Shown: positions 20,639 to 35,374, counted from the stretch's first letter. The stretch: DNA of 64,000 nucleotides from Candidatus Altimarinota bacterium (GCA_963664295.1 OY760935.1:448001-512000); one strand, 5' to 3'. A program made the numbers and translations. The notes: a model not told the origin generated them from the letters alone.

Positions 20639-21096
20639 TGAGCATAAAACACACCCTTTCTGTCATTATGAGCGTAATGAAACGGAGCGAAGAATCTCCT
20701 TGTCCATTTGCTCAAGCCCTATCTTGTCATTGCGGACTTTTTGGGTTGTCATTGCGGACTTGATCCGCAATCTCCTTGTCCATGTGCTCAAGCCCTATCT
20801 TGTCATTGCGGACTTTTTGGGTTGTCATTGCGGACTTGATCCGCAATCTCCTTGTCCATGTGCTCAAGCCCTATCTTGTCATTGCGGACTTTTTGGGTTG
20901 TCATTGCGGACTTGATCCGCAATCTCCTTGTCCATGTGCTCAAGTCCTATCTTGTCATTGCGGACTTTTTGGGTTGTCATTGCGGGCTACGACCCGCAAT
21001 CTCCTTGTCCATGTGCTCAAGTCCTGCCTTGGGCAATTCAACAGTAATGACAACGGGAGATCCTTCGCTTCGCCTAAAGGCTCGCTCAGGATGACA
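20639..21096. repeat. REP-like element with an internal 76-bp tandem repeat (4 copies plus a partial)
   Basis: Unit starts at 20700, 20776, 20852, 20928 and 21004 (partial); each carries the hairpin TTGCGGA-CTTGA-TCCGCAA; outer inverted ends TGTCATTATGAGCG / CGCTCAGGATGACA. Confidence 0.92.
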
Positions 21097-21255: not shown

Positions 21256-21296
21256 AAAAATGTATTACTGTACCAGTACACTAATACAGTAATACA
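21256..21296 (-). terminator. Putative intrinsic terminator
   Basis: 12-bp inverted repeat TGTATTACTGTA/TACAGTAATACA followed by a T-run on the minus strand, just after the PP2C gene. Confidence 0.55.
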
Positions 21297-21310
21297 AAAA
21301 TAAAATTAAT

Positions 21311-22885
21311 TTACAAAAATTTAACAACCATCAAAGTAATATCATCTTCCTGAGGATAATTACCCATATACTTTCTTACTTCCTCTAAAATTGCATCATG
21401 AACTTCTTGAGCATTCTCTTTTTTTCCATGCTTTTTAATTATCTCTTTAAAATAATCCATACCTAATTGAGTTTCTGGCGCACTATATGCCTCTGGAATA
21501 CCATCAGAATATAAAAACATCATATCTCCGCTCTGATAATCAACTTTTACTGCCTCGGTTTTGCTAGATATATCCGGCAACATGCCCATAGCAAGACCAC
21601 CAGAGGCAAGAGTTTCAATTTCTCCTGTTTCTGCTTTTAATAAAAGTATTTGATCATGTCCACATTGAACAAAGTTCATTATTTTTTCCTGCATATTCCA
21701 ATGGCAAGCAACACAAGTTAAAAATGTTGTTGGCCCTGTCTTTTCTGCCAATATTAAGTTTGTATCATCTACTATTTTCTTTGGGTCTGTGCTATCGAGA
21801 GTAGCCGCATAAAAACCTGAATTTGCCAAAGCAACGAGCAAGCTAGCGCCAACTCCATGCCCTGTTGCATCTCCCACATAGAAAAATTGATTGTCGTCTG
21901 TGAGTTTTTGAAAGTCATAACAATCTCCGCCTACTTCTGAGGCTGGTGAAGTAGATACTGCTATGTCTAATCCTTCTATTTTTGGTGCTTTTGTTGGCAA
22001 AATCCCCTCTTGAATTTTTCTAGCTATTTCTAGTTCTTTTGACACTCTTTCGTGTTCTATTTTTATTTCTATGCTTTTTTCAAGATCAATTGCCATTTGA
22101 TTAAATGTATCTGCCAATAATCTTGTCTCATCATTGGTTTTTACATCAACTCGCACTGTAAGGTCACCAGTGGCTATTTGCTTTGCTCCTTTTGTTAAGC
22201 TCATTATTGGATTTACCAATTTTCGAGCAAAAACAAAAGCAATCAAAAGACCCACAATTGCAATCACCAATAATACAAGCAATATTGTGCGTACTGCTGA
22301 CAATATGCGTTCTTCTAAAAATTTATAAGATACTGAATAAACAATTCTGGTTTGATTATCTCCACTTGGATAAACTATTTCACGCACTATTTCGTCATTT
22401 TGAACTACTGGAACCTCTTTTTCATTTGCATCTACATAAATATTTTCTCCATTATCTCCTTCTTTTACATAAATCACTCTTTTGTCTGTAATTATTGCTG
22501 GTTTTATATCTTGAATTGTTTTTTCTAATCGCTCTTCTACTTCTCCCTGCCCTTGCTCACCTATTGGCAAAGAAGAATCAAAAACAACTTCACCAGAAAA
22601 TTTTGCTATTTGAATACGACTTATGTCTTCATTAAGAGAAAAAATATGATTTAATTCTCTGTCAAAAAATAAATAACTTTCTGATTTAAAATAAAGCTCA
22701 TAAGCATCTTGCAATGGCTCTGTTGCTAATTCTGCAAAATGCACACCATTTTTCCAAATATCTTGTTTTATATCTTTACTTTTTTGGTTTATAAGAAAAT
22801 ATCCACTAACAGCAATACTAAGAACTAATAATATTGATATTAATAATGGTAATTTATGTTTAATTGAGAAAAAAAATCTTTTCAT
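21311..22885 (-). CDS. Membrane HAMP-domain SpoIIE/RsbU-type PP2C phosphatase
   Basis: TM-extracellular-TM-HAMP; ELEIARKIQ, EVGGDCYD, GDATGHG, LYSDGIPE, QEDDITL. Confidence 0.93.
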   Translation of the reverse strand: MKRFFFSIKHKLPLLISILLVLSIAVSGYFLINQKSKDIKQDIWKNGVHFAELATEPLQDAYELYFKSESYLFFDRELNHIFSLNEDISRIQIAKFSGEVVFDSSLPIGEQGQGEVEERLEKTIQDIKPAIITDKRVIYVKEGDNGENIYVDANEKEVPVVQNDEIVREIVYPSGDNQTRIVYSVSYKFLEERILSAVRTILLVLLVIAIVGLLIAFVFARKLVNPIMSLTKGAKQIATGDLTVRVDVKTNDETRLLADTFNQMAIDLEKSIEIKIEHERVSKELEIARKIQEGILPTKAPKIEGLDIAVSTSPASEVGGDCYDFQKLTDDNQFFYVGDATGHGVGASLLVALANSGFYAATLDSTDPKKIVDDTNLILAEKTGPTTFLTCVACHWNMQEKIMNFVQCGHDQILLLKAETGEIETLASGGLAMGMLPDISSKTEAVKVDYQSGDMMFLYSDGIPEAYSAPETQLGMDYFKEIIKKHGKKENAQEVHDAILEEVRKYMGNYPQEDDITLMVVKFL

Positions 22886-22891
22886 GGTTTA

Positions 22892-24388
22892 TTAAAAATG
22901 AATTATGCCATCAGAGCGAATAGAAATATTATATTCTGACGGAAGATAGGCAAGAAGATTGTCTATTGCAAAAAGCGGTAAACCAATCATGTCTTTTGTT
23001 ATAATGATTTCCATGGCTTCCTGAAGAGCTTTTAAGCGCTTTTCCTCGTCAACCTCAAATAAGCTTTTTTTAATATATTTATCAAGCTCCTCATTACTAT
23101 ATTCAAGTAAATTTAATTCACTACTTGAAAAAACAAAATCTCTTAAAAAATCATCTGTACTTCCTTTTGAGAAATCCCAACCAATTAAATAAAAATCTGC
23201 TGTTTTTTCTTTCATACTTTGCACCAATTCCTGCTCTGAAATTGTATTTATGTTTATTCTAATATCTAATTGTTCAAATTGTTCTTTTAAAAATTGTCCC
23301 AAAACCAAGTTTTGTCCTGTTAAATTTAATTCAAAAATTCTTTCTTCTTGAATTTCTATTATTTCTTTTGCTTTTTGCAAATTATATACTGGCAATTCTA
23401 TGTCTGGTTTATAGCCAAAAATACCACTTCCTGCAAATTGGCTTGTTAATTTTATTCCTTTAATTAATTCTTTTATTTTTTCTCTATTTATAGCGATATT
23501 TAATGCTTGTTGATTATTTTTATTTTGTAAAAATTCTGTTTCTGGATTAAATAATAAAAATACTGACTTTATGCCCGGACTTTCTATTATTTTTACACTT
23601 GAGTTGTTTTTTATTTGTTCTATAAAAATTGGTGGAACATCAGCAAGTACCTGTGTTTCTCCACCTAATATTTGACCTAATCTAGCATATTTATTTTCTT
23701 TTTTTTGTAATATTAAATTTTTTGGATAATTTTCTGGATTTTTCCAGTATTGTTCATTTCTTTGAAAATTTACCTTTTTTTCATCTATTTCTTTTAATTT
23801 AAAAGGACCTGTTCCTATATATTCCGAAACTTTTCCTTCTCTTACTTGCTCTTCTGGGGTTATGTAGATATTTGTTAACTCAGAAAGCAAAGTTGGCATT
23901 GGGTCTGCTGTGTTTATTTTGATTGTAAATTCATCTACTTTTTCGATTGATTCAATATTTAAAAGAAAATCTTTAAAAAGAGAATTTGAATTTGACCTTG
24001 CTCTTTCTAAGGTAGCAATTACATCATCTGCATTAAACTCACTGCCATCGTGAAAAACCACTTCTTTTCTAAGATTAAACTGCCATTCTGTTTCTGAAAT
24101 CATGCCCCAAGAAACTGCCAAGGCAGGTTTTATGGCAAAATGATCATCAAAATCCACCAAAGACTCATAAGTAAAAGCTAATTCTCTTTTTCCATAAAAA
24201 TCATAAGCAATTGGGTCTATGTCATCTGATAAATTGTTTACTGTAATAGTAAATTGTTCTTGTTCTGGTGCACTTGAGTGAATTGGACTCTCGTTTAATT
24301 TTTTTATTTGATCTGCATTGTAATAAGCAAAAACTCCTACTGCTAATAAAAAATGTACGCCGATGATTGCTATAAATTTTTTAATCAT
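22892..24388 (-). CDS. ABC-type solute-binding protein, family 5 (peptide/nickel)
   Basis: YESLV, PALAVSW, FNLRKEVVFHDGSEFNADDV, IGTGPFKL. Confidence 0.9.
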   Translation of the reverse strand: MIKKFIAIIGVHFLLAVGVFAYYNADQIKKLNESPIHSSAPEQEQFTITVNNLSDDIDPIAYDFYGKRELAFTYESLVDFDDHFAIKPALAVSWGMISETEWQFNLRKEVVFHDGSEFNADDVIATLERARSNSNSLFKDFLLNIESIEKVDEFTIKINTADPMPTLLSELTNIYITPEEQVREGKVSEYIGTGPFKLKEIDEKKVNFQRNEQYWKNPENYPKNLILQKKENKYARLGQILGGETQVLADVPPIFIEQIKNNSSVKIIESPGIKSVFLLFNPETEFLQNKNNQQALNIAINREKIKELIKGIKLTSQFAGSGIFGYKPDIELPVYNLQKAKEIIEIQEERIFELNLTGQNLVLGQFLKEQFEQLDIRININTISEQELVQSMKEKTADFYLIGWDFSKGSTDDFLRDFVFSSSELNLLEYSNEELDKYIKKSLFEVDEEKRLKALQEAMEIIITKDMIGLPLFAIDNLLAYLPSEYNISIRSDGIIHF

Positions 24389-27300
24389 TTTTTGTTTTTA
24401 TATTTGTTTCTTGTTTTGTTGCTTTATTTTCTTGTCTTCTGCGAATAAAATAAAAAGATGAGATAATAAAGCTAATCAATATCAATAAGTAAAAAAACAT
24501 TTCTAAGCTACCTTCTTCTACGAATATGTATTTATCGTCAATTTTAAAAGGAATTGTTAGTGTTTCACTTTTGATATTATCTGGTGTTATTGCGTATAAA
24601 ATTACTTTATGCTCTCCTGGCTCTAATTTTCGCGGAGAAATAAGCTCAAAATCACCAGCAGGACTATCTGCAATTACTGACGCAGAGGTTAAAATACTTT
24701 GAAAAGTTCCGTGCACTGTTGATCCATAATAAGTATTGCCACGAACAATCACATTGCCGTCTTTTATGATAATTTCTTTTACTGTTAGTGGCACAAATTT
24801 GCCCACTTGATCTGCTTCAAGATAATTATCATTTATTGCTAATACTTGCGGAGAAGGCAGTGCAAAGTCATCGGCCACTATAATTTTTACCGGCCTACTT
24901 TCTTTAATCACATTTCTTGTTTCCACATCTACTGCTGTAGCATGTAGTGTGTATTTGCCTTCTAGTAATTCTACTTCGGAAGGTAAAATATATTTTCCTT
25001 CTGCATCTACTAAAGCAGAACCAAGACGAATAGTTTTGTTATTTTCATCTATTGCCACTATTTCCATCATTTGATTGGCTGGTCCAGCGCCTTTCACAAA
25101 AATACTGCTTTCACCTGTTTTATCGTTGTCGCGCCAATTAGCAATAGTTGCTAATAATTCACCTTGATCTGGCACAAGTGGGTCTGTTCCTAGTTCTAAA
25201 ACCTCTTCACCATCTGTAGCTCCATCGCCATCTGTATCTTTATTGTTTGGATCTGTGCCATATTGAGCTTCTAATCCATCACTAAGACCATCTTGATCAC
25301 TATCTTTAATTCCACTACTTGTTAAGTTATTTAATGCATCTGGCAATACACTTTCGTCCTCAGGCACTATTACTAATTGGTATTGTGTCTCTTCTGGCGT
25401 GTAAATTGCTTCCTCTTCTTCCTCAGGAATAATAGTCACTTCTATCTCCGAAGGGGCACCAAGCAAACATTGCACCAAAAAATTAAGTCCATCAGAAGAA
25501 TTATTTGCATCTAGATTGTGTGATTCTTCCCAGTAATCAGGCATGCCATCATTATCACTATCTATTAGTTTACAATCTTTAAACTCAAGAAATTTATCTG
25601 CAATTATTGCAAATTCACCTCTGTTTATTTTTTCTTCTGGATAAACATTGCCATCTTTATCTGAAATCAAACCTAAGTTGTAGGCTGTGTAAACTTCTTC
25701 TTTATACCAAGCTCCTTCTGGTACGTCTTTTAATGGCTTACTTGCTTGTTCATCAAGCTTCATACCACTTTGACGCAATAAAATTGCTACTGCTTGTGCA
25801 CGAGTAATGTTTTCGTCTGGTCTAAAATATCCATCACCAAAACCCTGCACCACGCCCAAAGCTTTTGATTTTATGATACAAAAATAATACCAAGAATTCG
25901 GCGAAACATCTGGAAATGGCTGTACATTACTATATTTTGCTTTTTCTTCTGCTGTTGGATTAGCACAATTCAAACAATTTGTTGCTCCCATGGCAATTTT
26001 TACATACTCAGATCTGGTTATTTTATCTTCTGGTCTAAATTCTTCCGAAGACATTATTAATCTGCGATCATAAAGACTATAAACTGCCTCATATATAGGA
26101 GTATTTTCTTCTAAATCAGAGAAAAATTCCTCTTGATCTTGATATTGGCTGTATTCAAAAATACTGTCTAGTTTTTCAAGAGTTGTTTGCACTCTTGTAG
26201 CAGAAACTTGCACTCCTTCCTGACCATAATATTCAAGTTCAGCAATAATTTCCCCTATTTGTGCTTGAATTTCTTGATCATAACCTTCCTCATCAGGAAC
26301 ATAGCTCATTAATTTGTCTATGGTTTCTTGGGAAATATACCCTTCTAAACAAGAAAAATTTGAACTTCCTGTTAGATCGCTAGGACTTGCTGGACTTGAT
26401 GGTATTGTTGGAGAAAATGAAGAATCTGGCGAGCTTTCTGCTTCTTCAGACCCCTCTTCTCCTGACTCTTCCGGTTCTTCTTCACCTGATTCTTCAGGTT
26501 CTTCTTCGCCTGGCTCTTCCGGCTCTTCTTCGCCTGGTTCTTCAGGTTCTTCTGGAAGAGGCTCTTGTGCCTCTGCATCTGGCACTATATCAACAAAATA
26601 AGAATAATTACGCTCACAATTTTGCCTATTGTTAGCACTTAAAGTAATTCTTACTGTCCCTTCTTCTGTGATTGAATTTTGTAAACTGCCTTCAGCTTGC
26701 ACATCTCCATTACTTAGTTCTGTAAAAGTTAAATTTATTACTTCACTATCAACAACAGCAGTAATTGAGCTGTTTATTAAATCACTACCTCCACCAGATA
26801 TAGAAAATTGAACATAATTTAATGAACTTATTTCTGCATTATTTTCAGGATTTAAACTATAAAATTGTGGTCTTAAACTTGGAGTACAAGTCACTGGCTC
26901 TGGTGGCTCTGGTGGCTCATCTGACCCAGGGTCATAACCACCTCCTCCACCTCCACCATCATCTGGATCTTCTGGAGGTGCTGTTCCACATGCAATCACA
27001 GTATGATTTTCTAGTTTGCAACTTTCACAATCTTCTCGACTTTCATTACCACCTTCGTCAAAGGCACGAACTAAAAAATCCCAACTTTCACCAACTTGCG
27101 GTGTTGTTAAATTGGCATTGGGTGCTGTTGGCACATTAACTGTTGTTAATAATACATAACTTGCTTCTGAGCTTTTTTTGCCATAAATATGGTAACCTGC
27201 AAGTCCGCCACTCAAAATATGCAGACTGTCCTCCCAGCTAAGCTCCAAGCCAGCTGTATCTCTACAGCCGGCACTAGTGTTAGTGGGAGGAGCAATCTGT

Positions 27301-27428
27301 ACATATACTTGTATATCAACATCTTCGCTCACGTCCGCAAGGACGATATTATTTGTTGCAATTATGGTTATTAAAGCCAATATTGCTAATAATTTTTTGC
27401 CAACAATGTTAAATAATCTGTTTTTCAC
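24381..27428 (-). CDS. SLH-domain surface protein with Fn3-like, DxDxDG, Ig-like domains and a C-terminal TM anchor
   Basis: Signal peptide; FPDVSPNSWYY, GFGDGYFRPDENITRAQ (SLH); DSDNDGMPD, DTDGDGATDG; C-terminal hydrophobic helix plus RRR. Confidence 0.85.
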   Translation of the reverse strand: MKNRLFNIVGKKLLAILALITIIATNNIVLADVSEDVDIQVYVQIAPPTNTSAGCRDTAGLELSWEDSLHILSGGLAGYHIYGKKSSEASYVLLTTVNVPTAPNANLTTPQVGESWDFLVRAFDEGGNESREDCESCKLENHTVIACGTAPPEDPDDGGGGGGGYDPGSDEPPEPPEPVTCTPSLRPQFYSLNPENNAEISSLNYVQFSISGGGSDLINSSITAVVDSEVINLTFTELSNGDVQAEGSLQNSITEEGTVRITLSANNRQNCERNYSYFVDIVPDAEAQEPLPEEPEEPGEEEPEEPGEEEPEESGEEEPEESGEEGSEEAESSPDSSFSPTIPSSPASPSDLTGSSNFSCLEGYISQETIDKLMSYVPDEEGYDQEIQAQIGEIIAELEYYGQEGVQVSATRVQTTLEKLDSIFEYSQYQDQEEFFSDLEENTPIYEAVYSLYDRRLIMSSEEFRPEDKITRSEYVKIAMGATNCLNCANPTAEEKAKYSNVQPFPDVSPNSWYYFCIIKSKALGVVQGFGDGYFRPDENITRAQAVAILLRQSGMKLDEQASKPLKDVPEGAWYKEEVYTAYNLGLISDKDGNVYPEEKINRGEFAIIADKFLEFKDCKLIDSDNDGMPDYWEESHNLDANNSSDGLNFLVQCLLGAPSEIEVTIIPEEEEEAIYTPEETQYQLVIVPEDESVLPDALNNLTSSGIKDSDQDGLSDGLEAQYGTDPNNKDTDGDGATDGEEVLELGTDPLVPDQGELLATIANWRDNDKTGESSIFVKGAGPANQMMEIVAIDENNKTIRLGSALVDAEGKYILPSEVELLEGKYTLHATAVDVETRNVIKESRPVKIIVADDFALPSPQVLAINDNYLEADQVGKFVPLTVKEIIIKDGNVIVRGNTYYGSTVHGTFQSILTSASVIADSPAGDFELISPRKLEPGEHKVILYAITPDNIKSETLTIPFKIDDKYIFVEEGSLEMFFYLLILISFIISSFYFIRRRQENKATKQETNIKTKND
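26440..26560 (-). repeat. Coding tandem repeat (EEPEEPG/E linker)
   Basis: PEEPEEPGEEEPEEPGEEEPEESGEEEPEESGEE in the translation, roughly a 24-bp period. Confidence 0.8.
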
Positions 27429-27483
27429 TTTAAATTTTTTTATTTTTATTTTTTGTTTTTTGCTTATTTCAGTTTAGATCAGT

Positions 27484-28782
27484 TTATTTTTTTGATCTAC
27501 CTGCGTAATAAACAACAACCAAAAGAATTAATACAGCAAGACCTGCTACTGCCATACCTTTTGGAGTTTGTAGGAAACTTTTTGCTGTACCAGCAGCTTC
27601 AGCACCTGTGAAAGTTGCTTCACTTGTTAGCTCTTCGCCAGTAAGACCGTATTTTAAAGCTAATTTAGCTGTGTATTCACCTTCTGGAACTTCTTTACCT
27701 TCTAACCAGTCTATTTTTACTGTTTCAGATGAACCAGGAACAACATATTCCATATCTTCTGGTAAATCAATTTTTACAACAGGAGCATTGTATTCATTGA
27801 ATACCTCAATTGCTCCAACTGGTTTTTCGTATACCTTACCGCTATTTTTAAATTCAATAGCAAAATAAGCTGAACCATTTTCTGTCATCAATTTAAAACT
27901 TTCAACTGAAAGATCAGAACTTGTATCAAAATCTAATTCGCTTGTAAGCATGTCTTCTTCATTACCATAAGCAAGATTTAGCTTAGCTGTGTATTTGCCT
28001 TCAGCAATATTTTCTGACCATGTAGGACGGAAAACTCTAGCACTGCCAGGCAAAACATTACCACCGTTGATATTAACAGGAATTTCATCAGCAACTACTT
28101 CTTTTCCTGTTTCAGGGTCTTTATAGCGAGCAACTTCTTCTAATTTTTCGCCACTCTCGTTATAAAGAGCAATTTCACCAACTGGTTTTGAGTGAATATT
28201 ACCTGTGTTTTTAAAATTAACAGCAAGTGTCACAGCTTGATCACTGTAAAGTTTGTCTTCATAAAGACTAAACTCATCTAATTCACCTGTTAAAATTTCT
28301 TCACCAGTCACCTGAATAAGGATCAAGCTAGCAACTCTGCTACGAACCTGAACACCTTCAGTGTCTTCTACAACTGGTTCATATAAAATTGAAGCATATC
28401 TACCACCTGGTTCAGCACCTTCTGGAACTGTCACTGTAAAAGTGGTTTCTTTTTCAGAATTTGCCTCAAGAGTAATCTCTTCTTCGCCAAATTGAATCCA
28501 TTTTTCAATGTTACGAGGATCATTTTCTTCTAAATCAATGTTTTCTGGATAACCATCAAGATCATTTGCCACATAAACATCAATTTCTGGCTTAACAGTC
28601 ACTTGTTTGTTTTCACTGTTAATAACTTTGATTGTAGCTGTTGCAGAAGAGCCTGGATCAATAGTCAGCTCTGTTCTGAGGGGCTTAACGCCAACAGCAA
28701 GGGCGCTTGAAGCATAAAGTAGAAACGATAATGCTCCCAAAACCAACAATTTGGTCAGTTTTTGTGTGTTAATGTAAGTCAT
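27484..28782 (-). CDS. DUF916/WxL-interacting or PapD-like chaperone-fold protein with a C-terminal TM anchor
   Basis: Signal peptide; GVKPLRTELTIDPG...IKVIN, FTVTVPEGAEPGGRYASI, duplicated FKNTGN/FKNSGK..G.YTAKL.L.YG Ig domains. Confidence 0.7.
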   Translation of the reverse strand: MTYINTQKLTKLLVLGALSFLLYASSALAVGVKPLRTELTIDPGSSATATIKVINSENKQVTVKPEIDVYVANDLDGYPENIDLEENDPRNIEKWIQFGEEEITLEANSEKETTFTVTVPEGAEPGGRYASILYEPVVEDTEGVQVRSRVASLILIQVTGEEILTGELDEFSLYEDKLYSDQAVTLAVNFKNTGNIHSKPVGEIALYNESGEKLEEVARYKDPETGKEVVADEIPVNINGGNVLPGSARVFRPTWSENIAEGKYTAKLNLAYGNEEDMLTSELDFDTSSDLSVESFKLMTENGSAYFAIEFKNSGKVYEKPVGAIEVFNEYNAPVVKIDLPEDMEYVVPGSSETVKIDWLEGKEVPEGEYTAKLALKYGLTGEELTSEATFTGAEAAGTAKSFLQTPKGMAVAGLAVLILLVVVYYAGRSKK

Positions 28783-28855
28783 TTTTTGTATATAAAAAAT
28801 TTTTTAAAATTCTGTCATTTTTTTGCTGTTTAAGCAAGTTTTTTTAATATAAAAA

Positions 28856-30316
28856 TTAAAAAGTAGGTAAAGCAGTATAATAAATAATACCTGAGTAAAT
28901 ACCTGCGGGAGTTAAAAAGTTAATATTTAAGCCATAATATATTGTATGTATCTGCATATTTGTATTTGTTGAATAACCTACAGCATCTATGGTCCCATCA
29001 TATAAATCTAACACTTCAGAAGTATTTGAAAAAACAGAAACTGGATTTGCGTCTGCTTGTAATTCTTCTTTTGTCTTATTCACATCATCATTATAAGCAA
29101 TATAACCAAAAACATTCTCATCTACCTCTGGATCACCAGGTAAAATAGTGCTATCTGGACTTTTTAATGTTGCATTATCTTCGCTATCTAAAAGTTGTCC
29201 CAAAATTTTATAACCACCAATTGCATTAGTGCTTACTTCAATTTTAGTACTTTGGGAATAATCCTCACCATTATTAACAGATGGATCAACGCTGATATTT
29301 ACAATATTACTATCAAGGGTCATAATTAAGGCTTCTTGAACTGTGACAACAACATTAACTCTATTGTCTATATTGACATAGCCAATACCAGCGTCTATGA
29401 GAACATCACTAGTATCTCTGGTAAGTGTACTGATAGTATATTGACCTGGTGATGATGGATTTGTGTCTAAAACAGTAGAGTCAAAAGCCAAATTAATCAC
29501 ATCACCCGCATCAATACTAGAATTTAATTCAATATTTAAAACATTATTAAGAAGACTAGCTGAAGTAATATTGCTTTGAATATTGGTTTCATTAACTGTA
29601 AAACTAGTTATATTAGGTATAATATCTGCAATATTGTCCATCACAAAATCAGCAGGAAAATGAACAACAATGTGACTTCCGCTAGGAAAATCTGATCCCA
29701 AAATAATATCAAAGTCCATTTCAACATTCTCTGCTAAAACAGAACTATTGCTTAATTCTAAGTCAGAAAACAAATCCCCTGCTCCAGGCATTATTATTAA
29801 AGAATAAATTGCTGAAAATGTATCACTGTCGTCAGTGTCAGTAATTATAAAATTAAATTCATAATTATCAGCAATATAAGGATTTACATCTATTACCGTA
29901 GAATCACAACTTATTACTAATTCATCACCAACATCAAAAGAACTATTAGCGGTAAAATGCAACTCTTTAGCTGATAAATAAGTACTTACATCATCTTCAA
30001 CTAAACTAGATGGCGTAGTGTTTATCTCAAGGCTACAATGATCCCAAAGATGATTATCGCCTGGGCCGTTAATGTTATCTGACATAAAAAGATCTGGTAT
30101 TGTAATTGCTATTTCTGCTGTGTGACCAGCCTCAGATGCAATTTCAGAGGTGATAGAAAAAACAGCATTACCAGGCGCTTGATTAGCAATATTGTTATCC
30201 AAAACAATGCTTTCGTTTGAAGCAAAAACAAAATCACTCACAAAAAACAAAGAAACCATACAAACAATGGTTGTAAATTTTTTTGCCAATTTTTTATTAA
30301 GCGATTTTATTTTCAT
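28856..30316 (-). CDS. Secreted acidic beta-rich protein with a WxL/pilin-like C-terminal domain
   Basis: Signal peptide; VSTNAIGGY...TPAGIYSGIIYYTALPTF; paralog of the neighbouring gene. Confidence 0.65.
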   Translation of the reverse strand: MKIKSLNKKLAKKFTTIVCMVSLFFVSDFVFASNESIVLDNNIANQAPGNAVFSITSEIASEAGHTAEIAITIPDLFMSDNINGPGDNHLWDHCSLEINTTPSSLVEDDVSTYLSAKELHFTANSSFDVGDELVISCDSTVIDVNPYIADNYEFNFIITDTDDSDTFSAIYSLIIMPGAGDLFSDLELSNSSVLAENVEMDFDIILGSDFPSGSHIVVHFPADFVMDNIADIIPNITSFTVNETNIQSNITSASLLNNVLNIELNSSIDAGDVINLAFDSTVLDTNPSSPGQYTISTLTRDTSDVLIDAGIGYVNIDNRVNVVVTVQEALIMTLDSNIVNISVDPSVNNGEDYSQSTKIEVSTNAIGGYKILGQLLDSEDNATLKSPDSTILPGDPEVDENVFGYIAYNDDVNKTKEELQADANPVSVFSNTSEVLDLYDGTIDAVGYSTNTNMQIHTIYYGLNINFLTPAGIYSGIIYYTALPTF

Positions 30317-30331
30317 TTTTTTATTTTTTGC

Positions 30332-31357
30332 CTAAAAAGATGGCACAGCAGTATAAACAACACTGCCTGAGTAAATACCAGCTATTGTTTGATAATCAAC
30401 ATAAAGAATATAGTAAATTGTGTGGTCTTGTGAGTTTGTGTTTGATGCAAAACCTACTCCGCTTGCTGTACCGTCGTATAGTGTTAAGTCTGATGATGAG
30501 CTTGTGAATAATGGAGTTGACCCTGTTGCTTCAAGATCAGTTTTTAGACCTGCTTTGTCTTTTGTTGTATCTGCATTATAAGCCAAATAAGTAAACACAT
30601 TTGGCACATATGAACTACCATCGTAAACACTACCTGTATTGATGTTGTGTGTACCGTTTTTTAAAGTAGCATTAGTGTCTGAGTCTTGAAGTTGTGCTTG
30701 GATTTTATAACCATTAGCAGCATTAGTTTTAACGTTAAGTAGTGTTTTTTGAGAATAGTCTTCACCGTTTTTAACAGAAGGATCAACATTCAAATTTATA
30801 CTCGTATCATCAATGGTCATAATTAAAGCCTCTTGAACTGTAGTTGTCACAACAATTTCATTATCAATATCAGCATAAGCAATACCTGTATCAAGAGTTG
30901 TGCTTTCTGTGTCTTTTGTGGTTATTTGTATTCCATATTGTCCTGCAACAGAAGGATTTTGATCAATTACATTCACAGAAGCAGAAAGATTAATTGTGCT
31001 ACTTGCAGTAATTTCTGCACCAACAACAATACTTAATACATTACTAGTAAGATCAGCGCTGGTAATCGTCACACTTGCGCTATCATCCGTAAGAGTAAGC
31101 TCGCCAGTGGCATCAACAATATCGTCCATTGTAAAATCACTAGGAAAATTTACAATTATCTCACCTCCAGAGGGAACAGTAGTATCATTAATAAATTCAA
31201 ATGCAGAAGAAACAGCAGTAGCATCAACACTATTGTCACTCAAAGTGACAGTGGCATCAAAAGCTTTAACAGCAGGAATAAGAACAATTGTAAACAAAGT
31301 GCTAAGCACTACATAGTTCAAAAATTTTCCGATTTTTTTGGCAATTTCACACTGCAT
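30332..31357 (-). CDS. Secreted acidic beta-rich protein with a WxL/pilin-like C-terminal domain
   Basis: Signal peptide; VKTNAANGY...TIAGIYSGSVVYTAVPSF; shares TVQEALIMT and VDPSV.NGEDYSQ with its neighbour. Confidence 0.65.
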   Translation of the reverse strand: MQCEIAKKIGKFLNYVVLSTLFTIVLIPAVKAFDATVTLSDNSVDATAVSSAFEFINDTTVPSGGEIIVNFPSDFTMDDIVDATGELTLTDDSASVTITSADLTSNVLSIVVGAEITASSTINLSASVNVIDQNPSVAGQYGIQITTKDTESTTLDTGIAYADIDNEIVVTTTVQEALIMTIDDTSINLNVDPSVKNGEDYSQKTLLNVKTNAANGYKIQAQLQDSDTNATLKNGTHNINTGSVYDGSSYVPNVFTYLAYNADTTKDKAGLKTDLEATGSTPLFTSSSSDLTLYDGTASGVGFASNTNSQDHTIYYILYVDYQTIAGIYSGSVVYTAVPSF

Positions 31358-31460
31358 TTTATTTTTATCTCAAAACAAACTAATCTTAAAATTTTATTTC
31401 ATATCATTATATCATAAAAAAACCCGTTTTAAAAGGATAAAATCATTATTTTTTAGTATT

Positions 31461-34634: not shown

Positions 34635-34711
34635 TGGTCGGGGCAGCAGGACTCGAACCTGCGACCTCACGGTCCCAAACCGCGCACTCTAGCCAACTGA
34701 GCTATGCCCCG
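34635..34711 (-). tRNA. tRNA-Pro(TGG)
   Basis: CGGGGCATAGCTCAGTTGGCTAGAGTGCGCGG-TTTGGGA-CCGTGAGGTCGCAGGTTCGAGTCCTGCTGCCCCGACCA; full cloverleaf with CCA. Confidence 0.96.
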
Positions 34712-34717
34712 ATGATG

Positions 34718-34966
34718 TTAAAAATCTTTACTGTCCTCCAAAATCTTTTTTAAAAACTCTCTGCCTTTACCTGATTTTAAAAACTTTTCTCTTTTCATTG
34801 CCTCTCCTCTGCTACTTACCTCCTCACAATATACCAATTTCCAAGGGCCTTTCCCAGTTGTCCAACGATTACTACCATTATTGTGAATATCAATGCGTCG
34901 ATCAATATCTTTTGTAATACCTTTATAAAGAATTCCTGCCTGATTTTTAATAACGTAAACGAACAT
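34718..34966 (-). CDS. GIY-YIG nuclease family protein (82 aa), copy 1
   Basis: FVYVI..LYKGIT.DIDRR..HN.G..WT...GPWKLVY.E...AMKREKFLKSGKGR. Confidence 0.92.
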   Translation of the reverse strand: MFVYVIKNQAGILYKGITKDIDRRIDIHNNGSNRWTTGKGPWKLVYCEEVSSRGEAMKREKFLKSGKGREFLKKILEDSKDF

Positions 34967-34973
34967 AAAAAGT

Positions 34974-35032
34974 AAACCTGCGACCTCATCCGCCTAAGGC
35001 GGACGCACTCTAGCCAACTGAGCTATGCCCCG
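34974..35032 (-). pseudogene. Truncated tRNA-Pro copy with the anticodon arm replaced by TCCGCCTTAGGCGGA
   Basis: Identical 5' acceptor strand, D-arm, variable loop and 5' T-stem; stops in the T-loop. Confidence 0.85.
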
Positions 35033-35038
35033 ATGATG

Positions 35039-35287
35039 TTAAAAATCTTTACTGTCCTCCAAAATCTTTTTTAAAAACTCTCTGCCTTTACCTGATTTTA
35101 AAAACTTTTCTCTTTTCATTGCCTCTCCTCTGCTACTTACCTCCTCACAATATACCAATTTCCAAGGGCCTTTCCCAGTTGTCCAACGATTACTACCATT
35201 ATTGTGAATATCAATGCGTCGATCAATATCTTTTGTAATACCTTTATAAAGAATTCCTGCCTGATTTTTAATAACGTAAACGAACAT
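35039..35287 (-). CDS. GIY-YIG nuclease family protein (82 aa), copy 2
   Basis: Identical to copy 1. Confidence 0.92.
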   Translation of the reverse strand: MFVYVIKNQAGILYKGITKDIDRRIDIHNNGSNRWTTGKGPWKLVYCEEVSSRGEAMKREKFLKSGKGREFLKKILEDSKDF

Positions 35288-35294
35288 AAAAAGT

Positions 35295-35353
35295 AAACCT
35301 GCGACCTCATCCGCCTAAGGCGGACGCACTCTAGCCAACTGAGCTATGCCCCG
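35295..35353 (-). pseudogene. Second truncated tRNA-Pro copy with the palindrome
   Basis: Identical to 34974-35032. Confidence 0.85.
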
Positions 35354-35374
35354 ATGATGTTAAAAATCTTTACA

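Follow-up and report, generated by a model that had tools for sequence, protein, structure and literature searches.

Four neighbouring genes in Candidatus Altimarinota bacterium (GCA_963664295.1; OY760935.1:448001-512000, the whole 64,000-nt stretch analysed, referred to here as the window) probably form a divergent relative of the Pam pilus operon of candidate phyla radiation (CPR) bacteria, encoding a thin, usher-less fibre that would be built by chaperone-primed donor-strand exchange, with an SLH-domain protein capping its base and tying it to wall and membrane. The initial annotation, made from the sequence of the window, had proposed a donor-strand fibre of this usher-less kind in a monoderm-type CPR bacterium, and homology to the Pam pilus and to the WxL/Elr chaperone supports that proposal. 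All four open reading frames (ORFs) were found as annotated, at window 24381-31357 on the minus strand; they are co-directional and tightly spaced (intergenic gaps of 15, 73 and 55 nt) and encode, in order, a short pilin, a long pilin, a chaperone and an anchor protein. Each of the four products has a hydrophobic N-terminal signal-like segment, the chaperone and the anchor also carry a C-terminal hydrophobic helix, and no LPXTG motif is present in any of the four. The kind of system is already described in two 2026 preprints, and the SLH-bearing base and the three-domain chaperone are variant features of it.

In the first of these systems, the Pam pilus of Candidatus Mycosynbacter amalyticus, the main text reports PamA and PamB filaments solved by cryo-electron microscopy (cryo-EM), in which an inter-domain linker fills the open C-terminal domain of the neighbouring subunit (PMC13278184; Troman et al., bioRxiv 2026). 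The same text describes PamC and PamD as membrane-anchored PapD-like chaperones, and PamR, which has an N-terminal strand, two FnIII domains and a transmembrane (TM) helix and is without an acceptor domain, as the proposed terminator, which is predicted to fit into the final pilin; its assignment of functions to PamC, PamD and PamR comes from AlphaFold models (PMC13278184). In the WxL/Elr system, again as its main text presents it, ElrD polymerises via an N-terminal donor strand, the DUF916/DUF3324 protein ElrE is a membrane chaperone (by pull-downs and deletion mutants), and ElrB is the predicted base, sortase-anchored through LPXTG, with a donor strand and no acceptor domain (Sleutel et al., bioRxiv 10.64898/2026.10.17.759780).

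By the sequence homology of their C-terminal domain and the strand preceding it to canonical Pam pilins, both paralogs in the window are Pam-type pilins. When a 22-row alignment of the C-domain with its linker was compared by hhalign with 12 Pam pilins taken from other Patescibacteria operons with over-cut-off matches, the two aligned with a probability of 96.7% (E 3.3e-10, 165 columns), linker against linker. Among the Pam families in NCBIfam, namely NF058581 (CPR_Pam_pilin_C, the pilin C-domain), NF058578 (PamR) and NF058579 (PamT), the first matches the short pilin over residues 186-341 (E 2.4e-4, 21.2 bits) and the long pilin over residues 350-486 (E 8.3e-7, 29.2 bits). The annotated picture of two secreted paralogs with a common C-domain and one versus two upstream beta domains holds: the pilins are 44% identical over 95% of the shorter (E 4e-68), both end in ...AGIYSG...YTA.P(S/T)F, and the long pilin duplicates the N-terminal beta domain (residues 30-175 versus 176-325 by BLASTP: E 4e-7, 40% identity over 45 amino acids (aa)). 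Conservation across 22 aligned relatives lies in the C-terminal ~165 residues and the preceding strand (..V.V.ATVQEALI.T..), and the N-domains vary; the linker is among the most conserved stretches, and E176 of the short pilin is invariant.

The AlphaFold2 model of the short pilin has a predicted local distance difference test score (pLDDT) of 76.8, near 95 in the N-domain and below 50 in the linker, with a moderately confident C-domain. Its strands over residues 31-164, unpacked linker at 169-175 and C-domain at 178-339 reproduce the Pam pilin architecture of an N-terminal beta-sandwich, a single linker strand and a C-domain. The N-domain resembles YcnI, YweA and BslA-type immunoglobulin (Ig) folds (Z 10-11), and the C-domain model, among the matches listed, finds donor-strand pilin domains only: CfaE (Z 8.0-8.1 over 127-129 residues), CfaB (7.4) and CS20 (7.3). 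Neither a WxL chain nor a Pam pilin chain is among the structure matches listed for the pilin model. A profile of the C-domain found nothing below E 0.2 among PDB sequences, no WxL or Pam chains included, and a single pilin found nothing. The idea that YTA stands in for the WxL motif was unsupported by any test, and Pfam WxL (PF13731) matches neither pilin at E <= 1 and nothing in the genome at E <= 10. Judging from the PamA/PamB cryo-EM structures, the linker would act as donor strand in each pilin.

The product of the third gene matches the earlier description of a membrane-anchored, chaperone-like protein: it is a chaperone of the DUF916/WxLIP family, tethered to the membrane, in which a third domain is added to a PapD-like fold of two domains. 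PF06030 (DUF916/WxLIP_PGBD) clears its cut-off of 27.3 bits at 29.9 (31.7 when the whole genome was scanned), and PF11797 (DUF3324/WxLIP_HBD) reaches 17 bits (E 0.0057), under its cut-off of 28.9, with a precomputed PF11797 match present in some homologs; the PapD_N Pfam family gives no match on the protein at E <= 1. The AlphaFold2 model (pLDDT 92.1, predicted template-modelling score 0.79) has three beta domains and a C-terminal helix. Over residues ~25-289 its nearest solved relatives, by VIA, are Enterococcus faecium WxLIP structures (Z 14.2 for 9i25_C, over 230 of 251 residues, and 13.7), followed by both domains of the classical chaperones Caf1M (12.2), DraB (11.9), CfaA (11.7), FimC (11.3), SafB (11.2), CsuC (10.9) and PapD (10.8), the lower end of the range being 10.5. 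The Foldseek comparison proposed with the initial annotation agrees. BLASTP aligns the protein with the chaperone of genome G218 (E 2e-17, 25% identity over 292 residues), which belongs to a bona fide Pam operon, one that adjoins ATP synthase genes, as in PMC13278184, and whose PamR and PamT exceed the NCBIfam equivalog cut-offs. Residues 312-391 match the same region of the G218 chaperone a second time, so the third domain duplicates the second. In make-up the protein is like PamC and PamD, a PapD/FimC-like chaperone that ends in a TM helix (residues 406-430), with the third domain as an extra. It is the sole gene of its type in the closed genome, and of 151 genomes from the same class, 45 hold relatives at E <= 1e-5.

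In the product of the fourth gene, annotated from the start as an SLH/TM protein, Pfam recognises three stretches of SLH (E 1.9e-27) and as many TSP3 repeats (TSP3_bac); a C-terminal helix lies at residues 973-996. SLH domains bind pyruvylated wall polymer, and a PS_pyruv_trans-family gene lies at C1:438541-439347, ~9 kb before the window. After its predicted signal peptide the anchor opens with SEDVDIQVYVQIAPP, followed by an FN3-like domain, so that its layout of N-terminal strand, FN3 and TM helix is analogous to that of PamR. No Pam pilin acceptor domain is found in it by NF058581; PamR (NF058578) gives no match on the anchor at E <= 1 and nothing over cut-off in the genome. The anchor strand can be placed in register with DNEIVVTTTVQEA and DNRVNVVVTVQEA of the pilins, with which it has in common a V-Q-x-A end and alternating hydrophobic positions, and it ends with two prolines where the pilins run on into their own domain. 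This resemblance of the mature N-terminus to the pilin linkers, which had been noticed at the outset, is better than chance within this genome. When a position matrix built from 25 distinct linker strands was scored on 1258 ORFs of the genome, the anchor segment SEDVDIQVYVQIA ranked 12th overall, with pilin-domain proteins making up 7 of the 11 above it; when only the first 70 residues were scored it ranked 3rd, below two ORFs of 100-101 aa, of which one runs antisense to a pilin gene. The anchor orthologs begin with a comparable strand and then (A/I)-A-P-P. Docking of the anchor strand in a pilin groove is a well-motivated prediction by analogy, and the proposal that the inter-domain strand is the donor and the SLH protein's N-terminus its mimic finds parallels in PamR and ElrB. 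Co-variation between anchor strand and pilin linker, judged by eye, was also considered (VQ-VQ here, VR-VV in relatives) and dropped for want of a clear pattern.

A word-based search with the anchor N-terminus returned only the anchor itself. An exhaustive profile search with its N-terminal module gave 939 proteins at E <= 0.001, dominated by multi-FN3 giants; the best 150 of the 939 included, by eye, 13 single full-length N-terminal matches, the window's own anchor among them. Orthologs of the strand-plus-FN3 module occur in 22 of 401 genomes of the same class (E <= 0.001). The module gene is directly downstream of the chaperone gene in all six genomes with E < 1e-40; four weaker matches were examined, of which two stand beside the chaperone gene and two beside a giant surface protein on short contigs. 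The proposed synteny thus holds in 8 of the 10 genomes examined. What follows the module changes from relative to relative: FN3 with SLH x3 and no membrane helix; SLH x3 with PG_binding_1 and a separate TSP3/Ig/TM protein nearby; or TSP3/Ig/TM without SLH. Among 12 cluster representatives with the module at the N-terminus, six have SLH and four of them also PG_binding_1. In the window, the SLH, TSP3, Ig and TM parts are combined in one chain. Such module swapping, together with the synteny, is as expected of an adaptor between fibre and envelope. Three short relatives of the module (P0112, P0119 and P0218) end in a segment that looks dockerin-like by eye (D.N.D..VD.LD...) and has no Pfam match.

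Several observations tell against reading the locus as a Pam relative capped by its SLH protein. Both pilins fall below the NF058581 cut-off of 55 bits, and the highest score genome-wide, 31.2 bits, is also under it; sub-threshold scores do occur among true members, since the PamA-like pilin of the G218 operon reaches only 44.5 bits. The structural matches of the C-domain, with Z near 8, are only middling on the tool's own scale. PamT (NF058579) has 0 matches at E <= 1 in the closed genome; with neither a PamR nor a PamT equivalog, there is therefore no acceptor-only tip subunit. Linker-like N-termini are uneven among anchors: the linker matrix, applied to 20 anchors from other genomes and clusters, puts 5 in the null's top 1% and 16 in its top 10%; several of the highest-scoring windows fall outside the strand, and two anchors reach only the level of random ORFs. 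Lastly, genomes G443 and G259 have a pilin and chaperone pair without an anchor gene behind the chaperone.

The uneven linker scores, with a matrix that fails to single out all anchor N-termini, and the two genomes lacking an anchor would suit a different account, in which the pilins and the chaperone build a Pam-type fibre and the SLH protein is an independent wall protein whose N-terminal strand merely opens its own FN3 domain; in that case the chaperone alone would hold the fibre, or the fibre would be shed. SLH proteins are indeed common in this genome, with 49 matches in 19 open frames, and SLH looks like the organism's general wall-anchoring device. The Pam pili of M. amalyticus, according to the main text describing them, detach easily (PMC13278184). 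We nevertheless consider an independent SLH protein unlikely, given that the module keeps its place after the chaperone gene in those 8 of 10 genomes despite the swaps of SLH, PG_binding_1 and TSP3/TM parts, that the A-P-P break between strand and FN3 is conserved, and that the layout is like that of the published PamR and ElrB terminators.

With the PamA/PamB cryo-EM structures and the ElrD/ElrE experiments as models, assembly of the capped fibre would proceed as follows. Subunits would cross the membrane via Sec, and the beta-hairpin of the chaperone (~residues 140-158) would occupy the open groove of each subunit's C-domain until the linker strand of the next subunit displaced it, so that the fibre would grow from its base. 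Adhesin-type paralogs may be carried at the tip or within the fibre. The N-terminal strand of the anchor would fill the last groove and stop growth, its SLH x3 would hold the base non-covalently in the wall polymer, and its C-terminal helix would stay in the membrane.

The subunit repertoire extends beyond the window. The genome is closed (1,215,430 bp) and reads well under table 11. Genetic code 25, considered in view of relatives labelled Gracilibacteria, was rejected: TGA ends 65 of 497 long ORFs, and reading through it adds little. Seven proteins genome-wide have linker and C-domain by NF058581, the window's two pilins and five encoded by dispersed genes (627, 630, 986, 1325 and 1429 aa); an eighth match (E 0.25) was dropped as a proline-rich protein. 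The payloads of the dispersed subunits include a right-handed beta-helix, GLUG repeats and DUF2808, and all seven proteins keep the linker and N-terminal domains. There is thus one chaperone gene versus seven subunit genes. The C-domains of two dispersed subunits, at C1:919327-921219 (630 aa) and C1:1102695-1104578 (627 aa), are 79-80% identical to that of the short pilin, and the C-domain of the adjacent long pilin is only 52% identical to it; the higher identity of the distant paralogs suggests recent duplication or gene conversion of the assembly module.

Of the components that the initial annotation held to be absent, the outer-membrane usher (PF00577) indeed has 0 matches at E <= 1 in the closed genome; a sortase is absent from the operon, and the genome has a single sortase gene at 715650-716075, ~240 kb away. 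Across 401 sampled Patescibacteria genomes, NF058581 matches at E <= 0.001 in 117 and over cut-off in 33, tallies that include the window's own genome and an unpublished genome, G154, on which nothing else here rests. Among named records, those with the nearest related loci bear the labels Candidatus Gracilibacteria, Candidatus Peribacteria or 'Patescibacteria group'.

That the locus makes no fibre is improbable. On this account, which follows an earlier model of WxL-interacting proteins linking bacterial and host surfaces, its DUF916-like membrane protein would keep subunits, singly or as small oligomers, at the surface in a WxL/Csc-like complex. The nearest solved relative of the chaperone (PDB 9i25) is described as a WxL-binding surface protein (PMC10599100), and the extra third domain could be a binding module, but both homologous systems examined form filaments (PamA/PamB by cryo-EM; ElrD by cryo-EM and sodium dodecyl sulphate-stable ladders, as their main texts report), and seven of seven subunits here keep the linker, the strand by which neighbouring subunits are joined in Pam.

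Among known systems, the locus is closer to Pam in pilin architecture, internal putative donor strand and CPR host, and it has its chaperone family in common with Elr. It resembles Pam in the homologous C-domain and linker, the homologous membrane-anchored chaperone, the lack of an usher, and a base protein with N-terminal strand, FN3 and C-terminal TM helix. Unlike Pam as described, its pilins stay under the NCBIfam cut-off and it lacks a PamR or PamT equivalog; a single three-domain chaperone stands where Pam has a pair with two domains each; its base protein is three times longer, with SLH x3, TSP3 and Ig modules; five further subunits, some of them adhesin-sized, are encoded elsewhere in the genome; and the lineage is Gracilibacteria/Peribacteria-like. 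With WxL/Elr it shares the PF06030 chaperone family, fold and C-terminal TM anchor (solved WxLIP: 9i1y, 9i25), predicted chaperone-only assembly, large putative adhesins with a C-terminal pilin domain, and a predicted terminator with a donor strand and no acceptor domain. It differs from WxL/Elr in having no WxL domain by Pfam or profile and PF11797 under cut-off, in a predicted donor strand that is an internal linker rather than the mature N-terminus, and in a base anchored by SLH and a TM helix rather than by LPXTG and sortase.

The two-domain chaperone fold (Z 10.5-12.2) and the likeness of the pilin C-domain to CfaE/CfaB (Z 7.4-8.1) recall classical chaperone-usher pili (class 5 CFA/I: CfaA, CfaB, CfaE; Caf1M/Caf1), in contrast to which no usher is present, no outer membrane is implied, the chaperone is membrane-tethered and the pilins have extra N-terminal domains. 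Three tandem SLH domains and a PS_pyruv_trans-family gene in the genome are also features of SLH-anchored surface-layer (S-layer) and wall proteins of monoderms, whereas the SLH triplet here sits mid-chain, in a protein that has a membrane anchor at one end and, at its N-terminus, a segment predicted to dock in a pilus.

These likenesses leave room for a broader and more tentative proposal, which we regard as quite possible: Pam in CPR bacteria and WxL/Elr in Bacilli may belong, as two branches, to a single ancient pilus family of bacteria lacking an outer membrane, one that dispenses with an usher and relies on a membrane-tethered chaperone and donor-strand exchange. On this proposal, fibres of the Gracilibacteria/Peribacteria type would end in an adaptor of donor strand and FN3 set on interchangeable envelope modules, which in the window are SLH x3 and a membrane helix.

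Coordinates of the operon's features are given in Table 1. The promoter-like site upstream of the short pilin gene is a pattern match only, and such sites are no commoner in the region than in shuffled sequence (41 versus 45.3 expected).

Table 1. Features of the four-gene locus and the site upstream of it, in window coordinates.
Feature	Position	Strand	Description or basis
Promoter-like site, TTTAAA-16-TATAAT with TG extension	31406-31433	-	~50 nt upstream of short pilin gene; 10/12 consensus
Short pilin, 341 aa	30332-31357	-	Signal peptide, one beta-sandwich N-domain, linker strand, C-terminal Pam-type pilin domain
Short-pilin linker (predicted donor strand), residues 165-177, DNEIVVTTTVQEA	30827-30865	-	Alignment with Pam pilin linkers
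Long pilin, 486 aa	28856-30316	-	Signal peptide, two N-domain copies, linker strand, C-terminal Pam-type pilin domain
Long-pilin linker (predicted donor strand), residues 317-329, DNRVNVVVTVQEA	29330-29368	-	Same alignment columns as short-pilin linker
Chaperone, 432 aa	27484-28782	-	Signal peptide, DUF916/WxLIP-type two-domain core, duplicated third beta domain, TM helix
Chaperone C-terminal TM helix, residues 406-430	27493-27567	-	Hydrophobic segment
Base/anchor protein, 1015 aa	24381-27428	-	Signal peptide, N-terminal linker-like strand, FN3 domain
Base/anchor protein (same gene), parts that follow FN3	24381-27428	-	Acidic and Gly/Pro linkers, SLH x3, TSP3 repeats, Big_13-like Ig domain, C-terminal TM helix
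Anchor strand (predicted donor strand), residues 34-46, SEDVDIQVYVQIA	27291-27329	-	Directly after predicted signal peptide, then PP
Anchor SLH x3	25608-26123	-	Pfam SLH
Anchor C-terminal TM helix, residues 973-996	24441-24512	-	Hydrophobic segment

Beyond the operon, an SBP_bac_5 solute-binding gene overlaps the end of the anchor gene by 8 nt and is followed by a gene for a HAMP-SpoIIE (PP2C) membrane phosphatase (window 21261-24388). The only strong terminator-like hairpin on the minus strand, again a pattern match, lies behind these two further genes at 21296-21261, so all six genes (the four of the operon, SBP_bac_5 and HAMP-SpoIIE) may share a single transcript. A 524-aa SpoIIE-like gene also occurs near the related operon of genome G451, but on the opposite strand. 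Between the exonuclease-III-like and SpoIIE/HAMP genes, window 20693-21025 holds a 76-bp tandem repeat (4.4 copies, 97% matching), which accounts for overlapping spurious ORFs there. On the other side of the operon, window 34638-35373 is a perfect 321-bp tandem duplication (2.2 copies); repeated in it are the 3' portion of a minus-strand tRNA gene (34638-34711) and an 82-aa GIY-YIG-like ORF, the ORF copies at 34718-34966 and 35039-35287 being identical.

CPR bacteria presumably live in attachment to other cells, and very little is known of the organelles that they use for it. The locus described here extends the Pam pilus to a Gracilibacteria/Peribacteria-like lineage, and it does so in a complete 1.2-Mb genome in which one chaperone gene serves seven subunit genes. 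The main text of the Pam preprint makes no mention of WxL, DUF916, SLH, S-layer or peptidoglycan; nor does it name Gracilibacteria, Peregrinibacteria or Peribacteria, for which the supplements may hold wider taxon lists (PMC13278184). The main text of the Elr preprint, whose supplements may likewise list more taxa, mentions neither Patescibacteria, CPR, Pam nor SLH (10.64898/2026.10.17.759780). In those main texts, Pam pili are called CPR-specific and distinct (PMC13278184), and the Elr system is reported only in Bacillota and a small Actinomycetota satellite (10.64898/2026.10.17.759780). The present locus is a further case linking Pam and WxL/Elr, through a chaperone family common to both, though neither main text mentions the other system, and this link contrasts with the framing of Pam as CPR-specific and of WxL pili as confined to Bacillota. 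A four-term full-text search listed no paper on an SLH-anchored donor-strand pilus. The anchor protein, in which a predicted donor strand is joined to SLH domains, is a candidate for wall fixation without the use of an usher or a sortase here; if the broader proposal is true, it would represent a third, non-covalent way to anchor a donor-strand pilus, besides usher and sortase.

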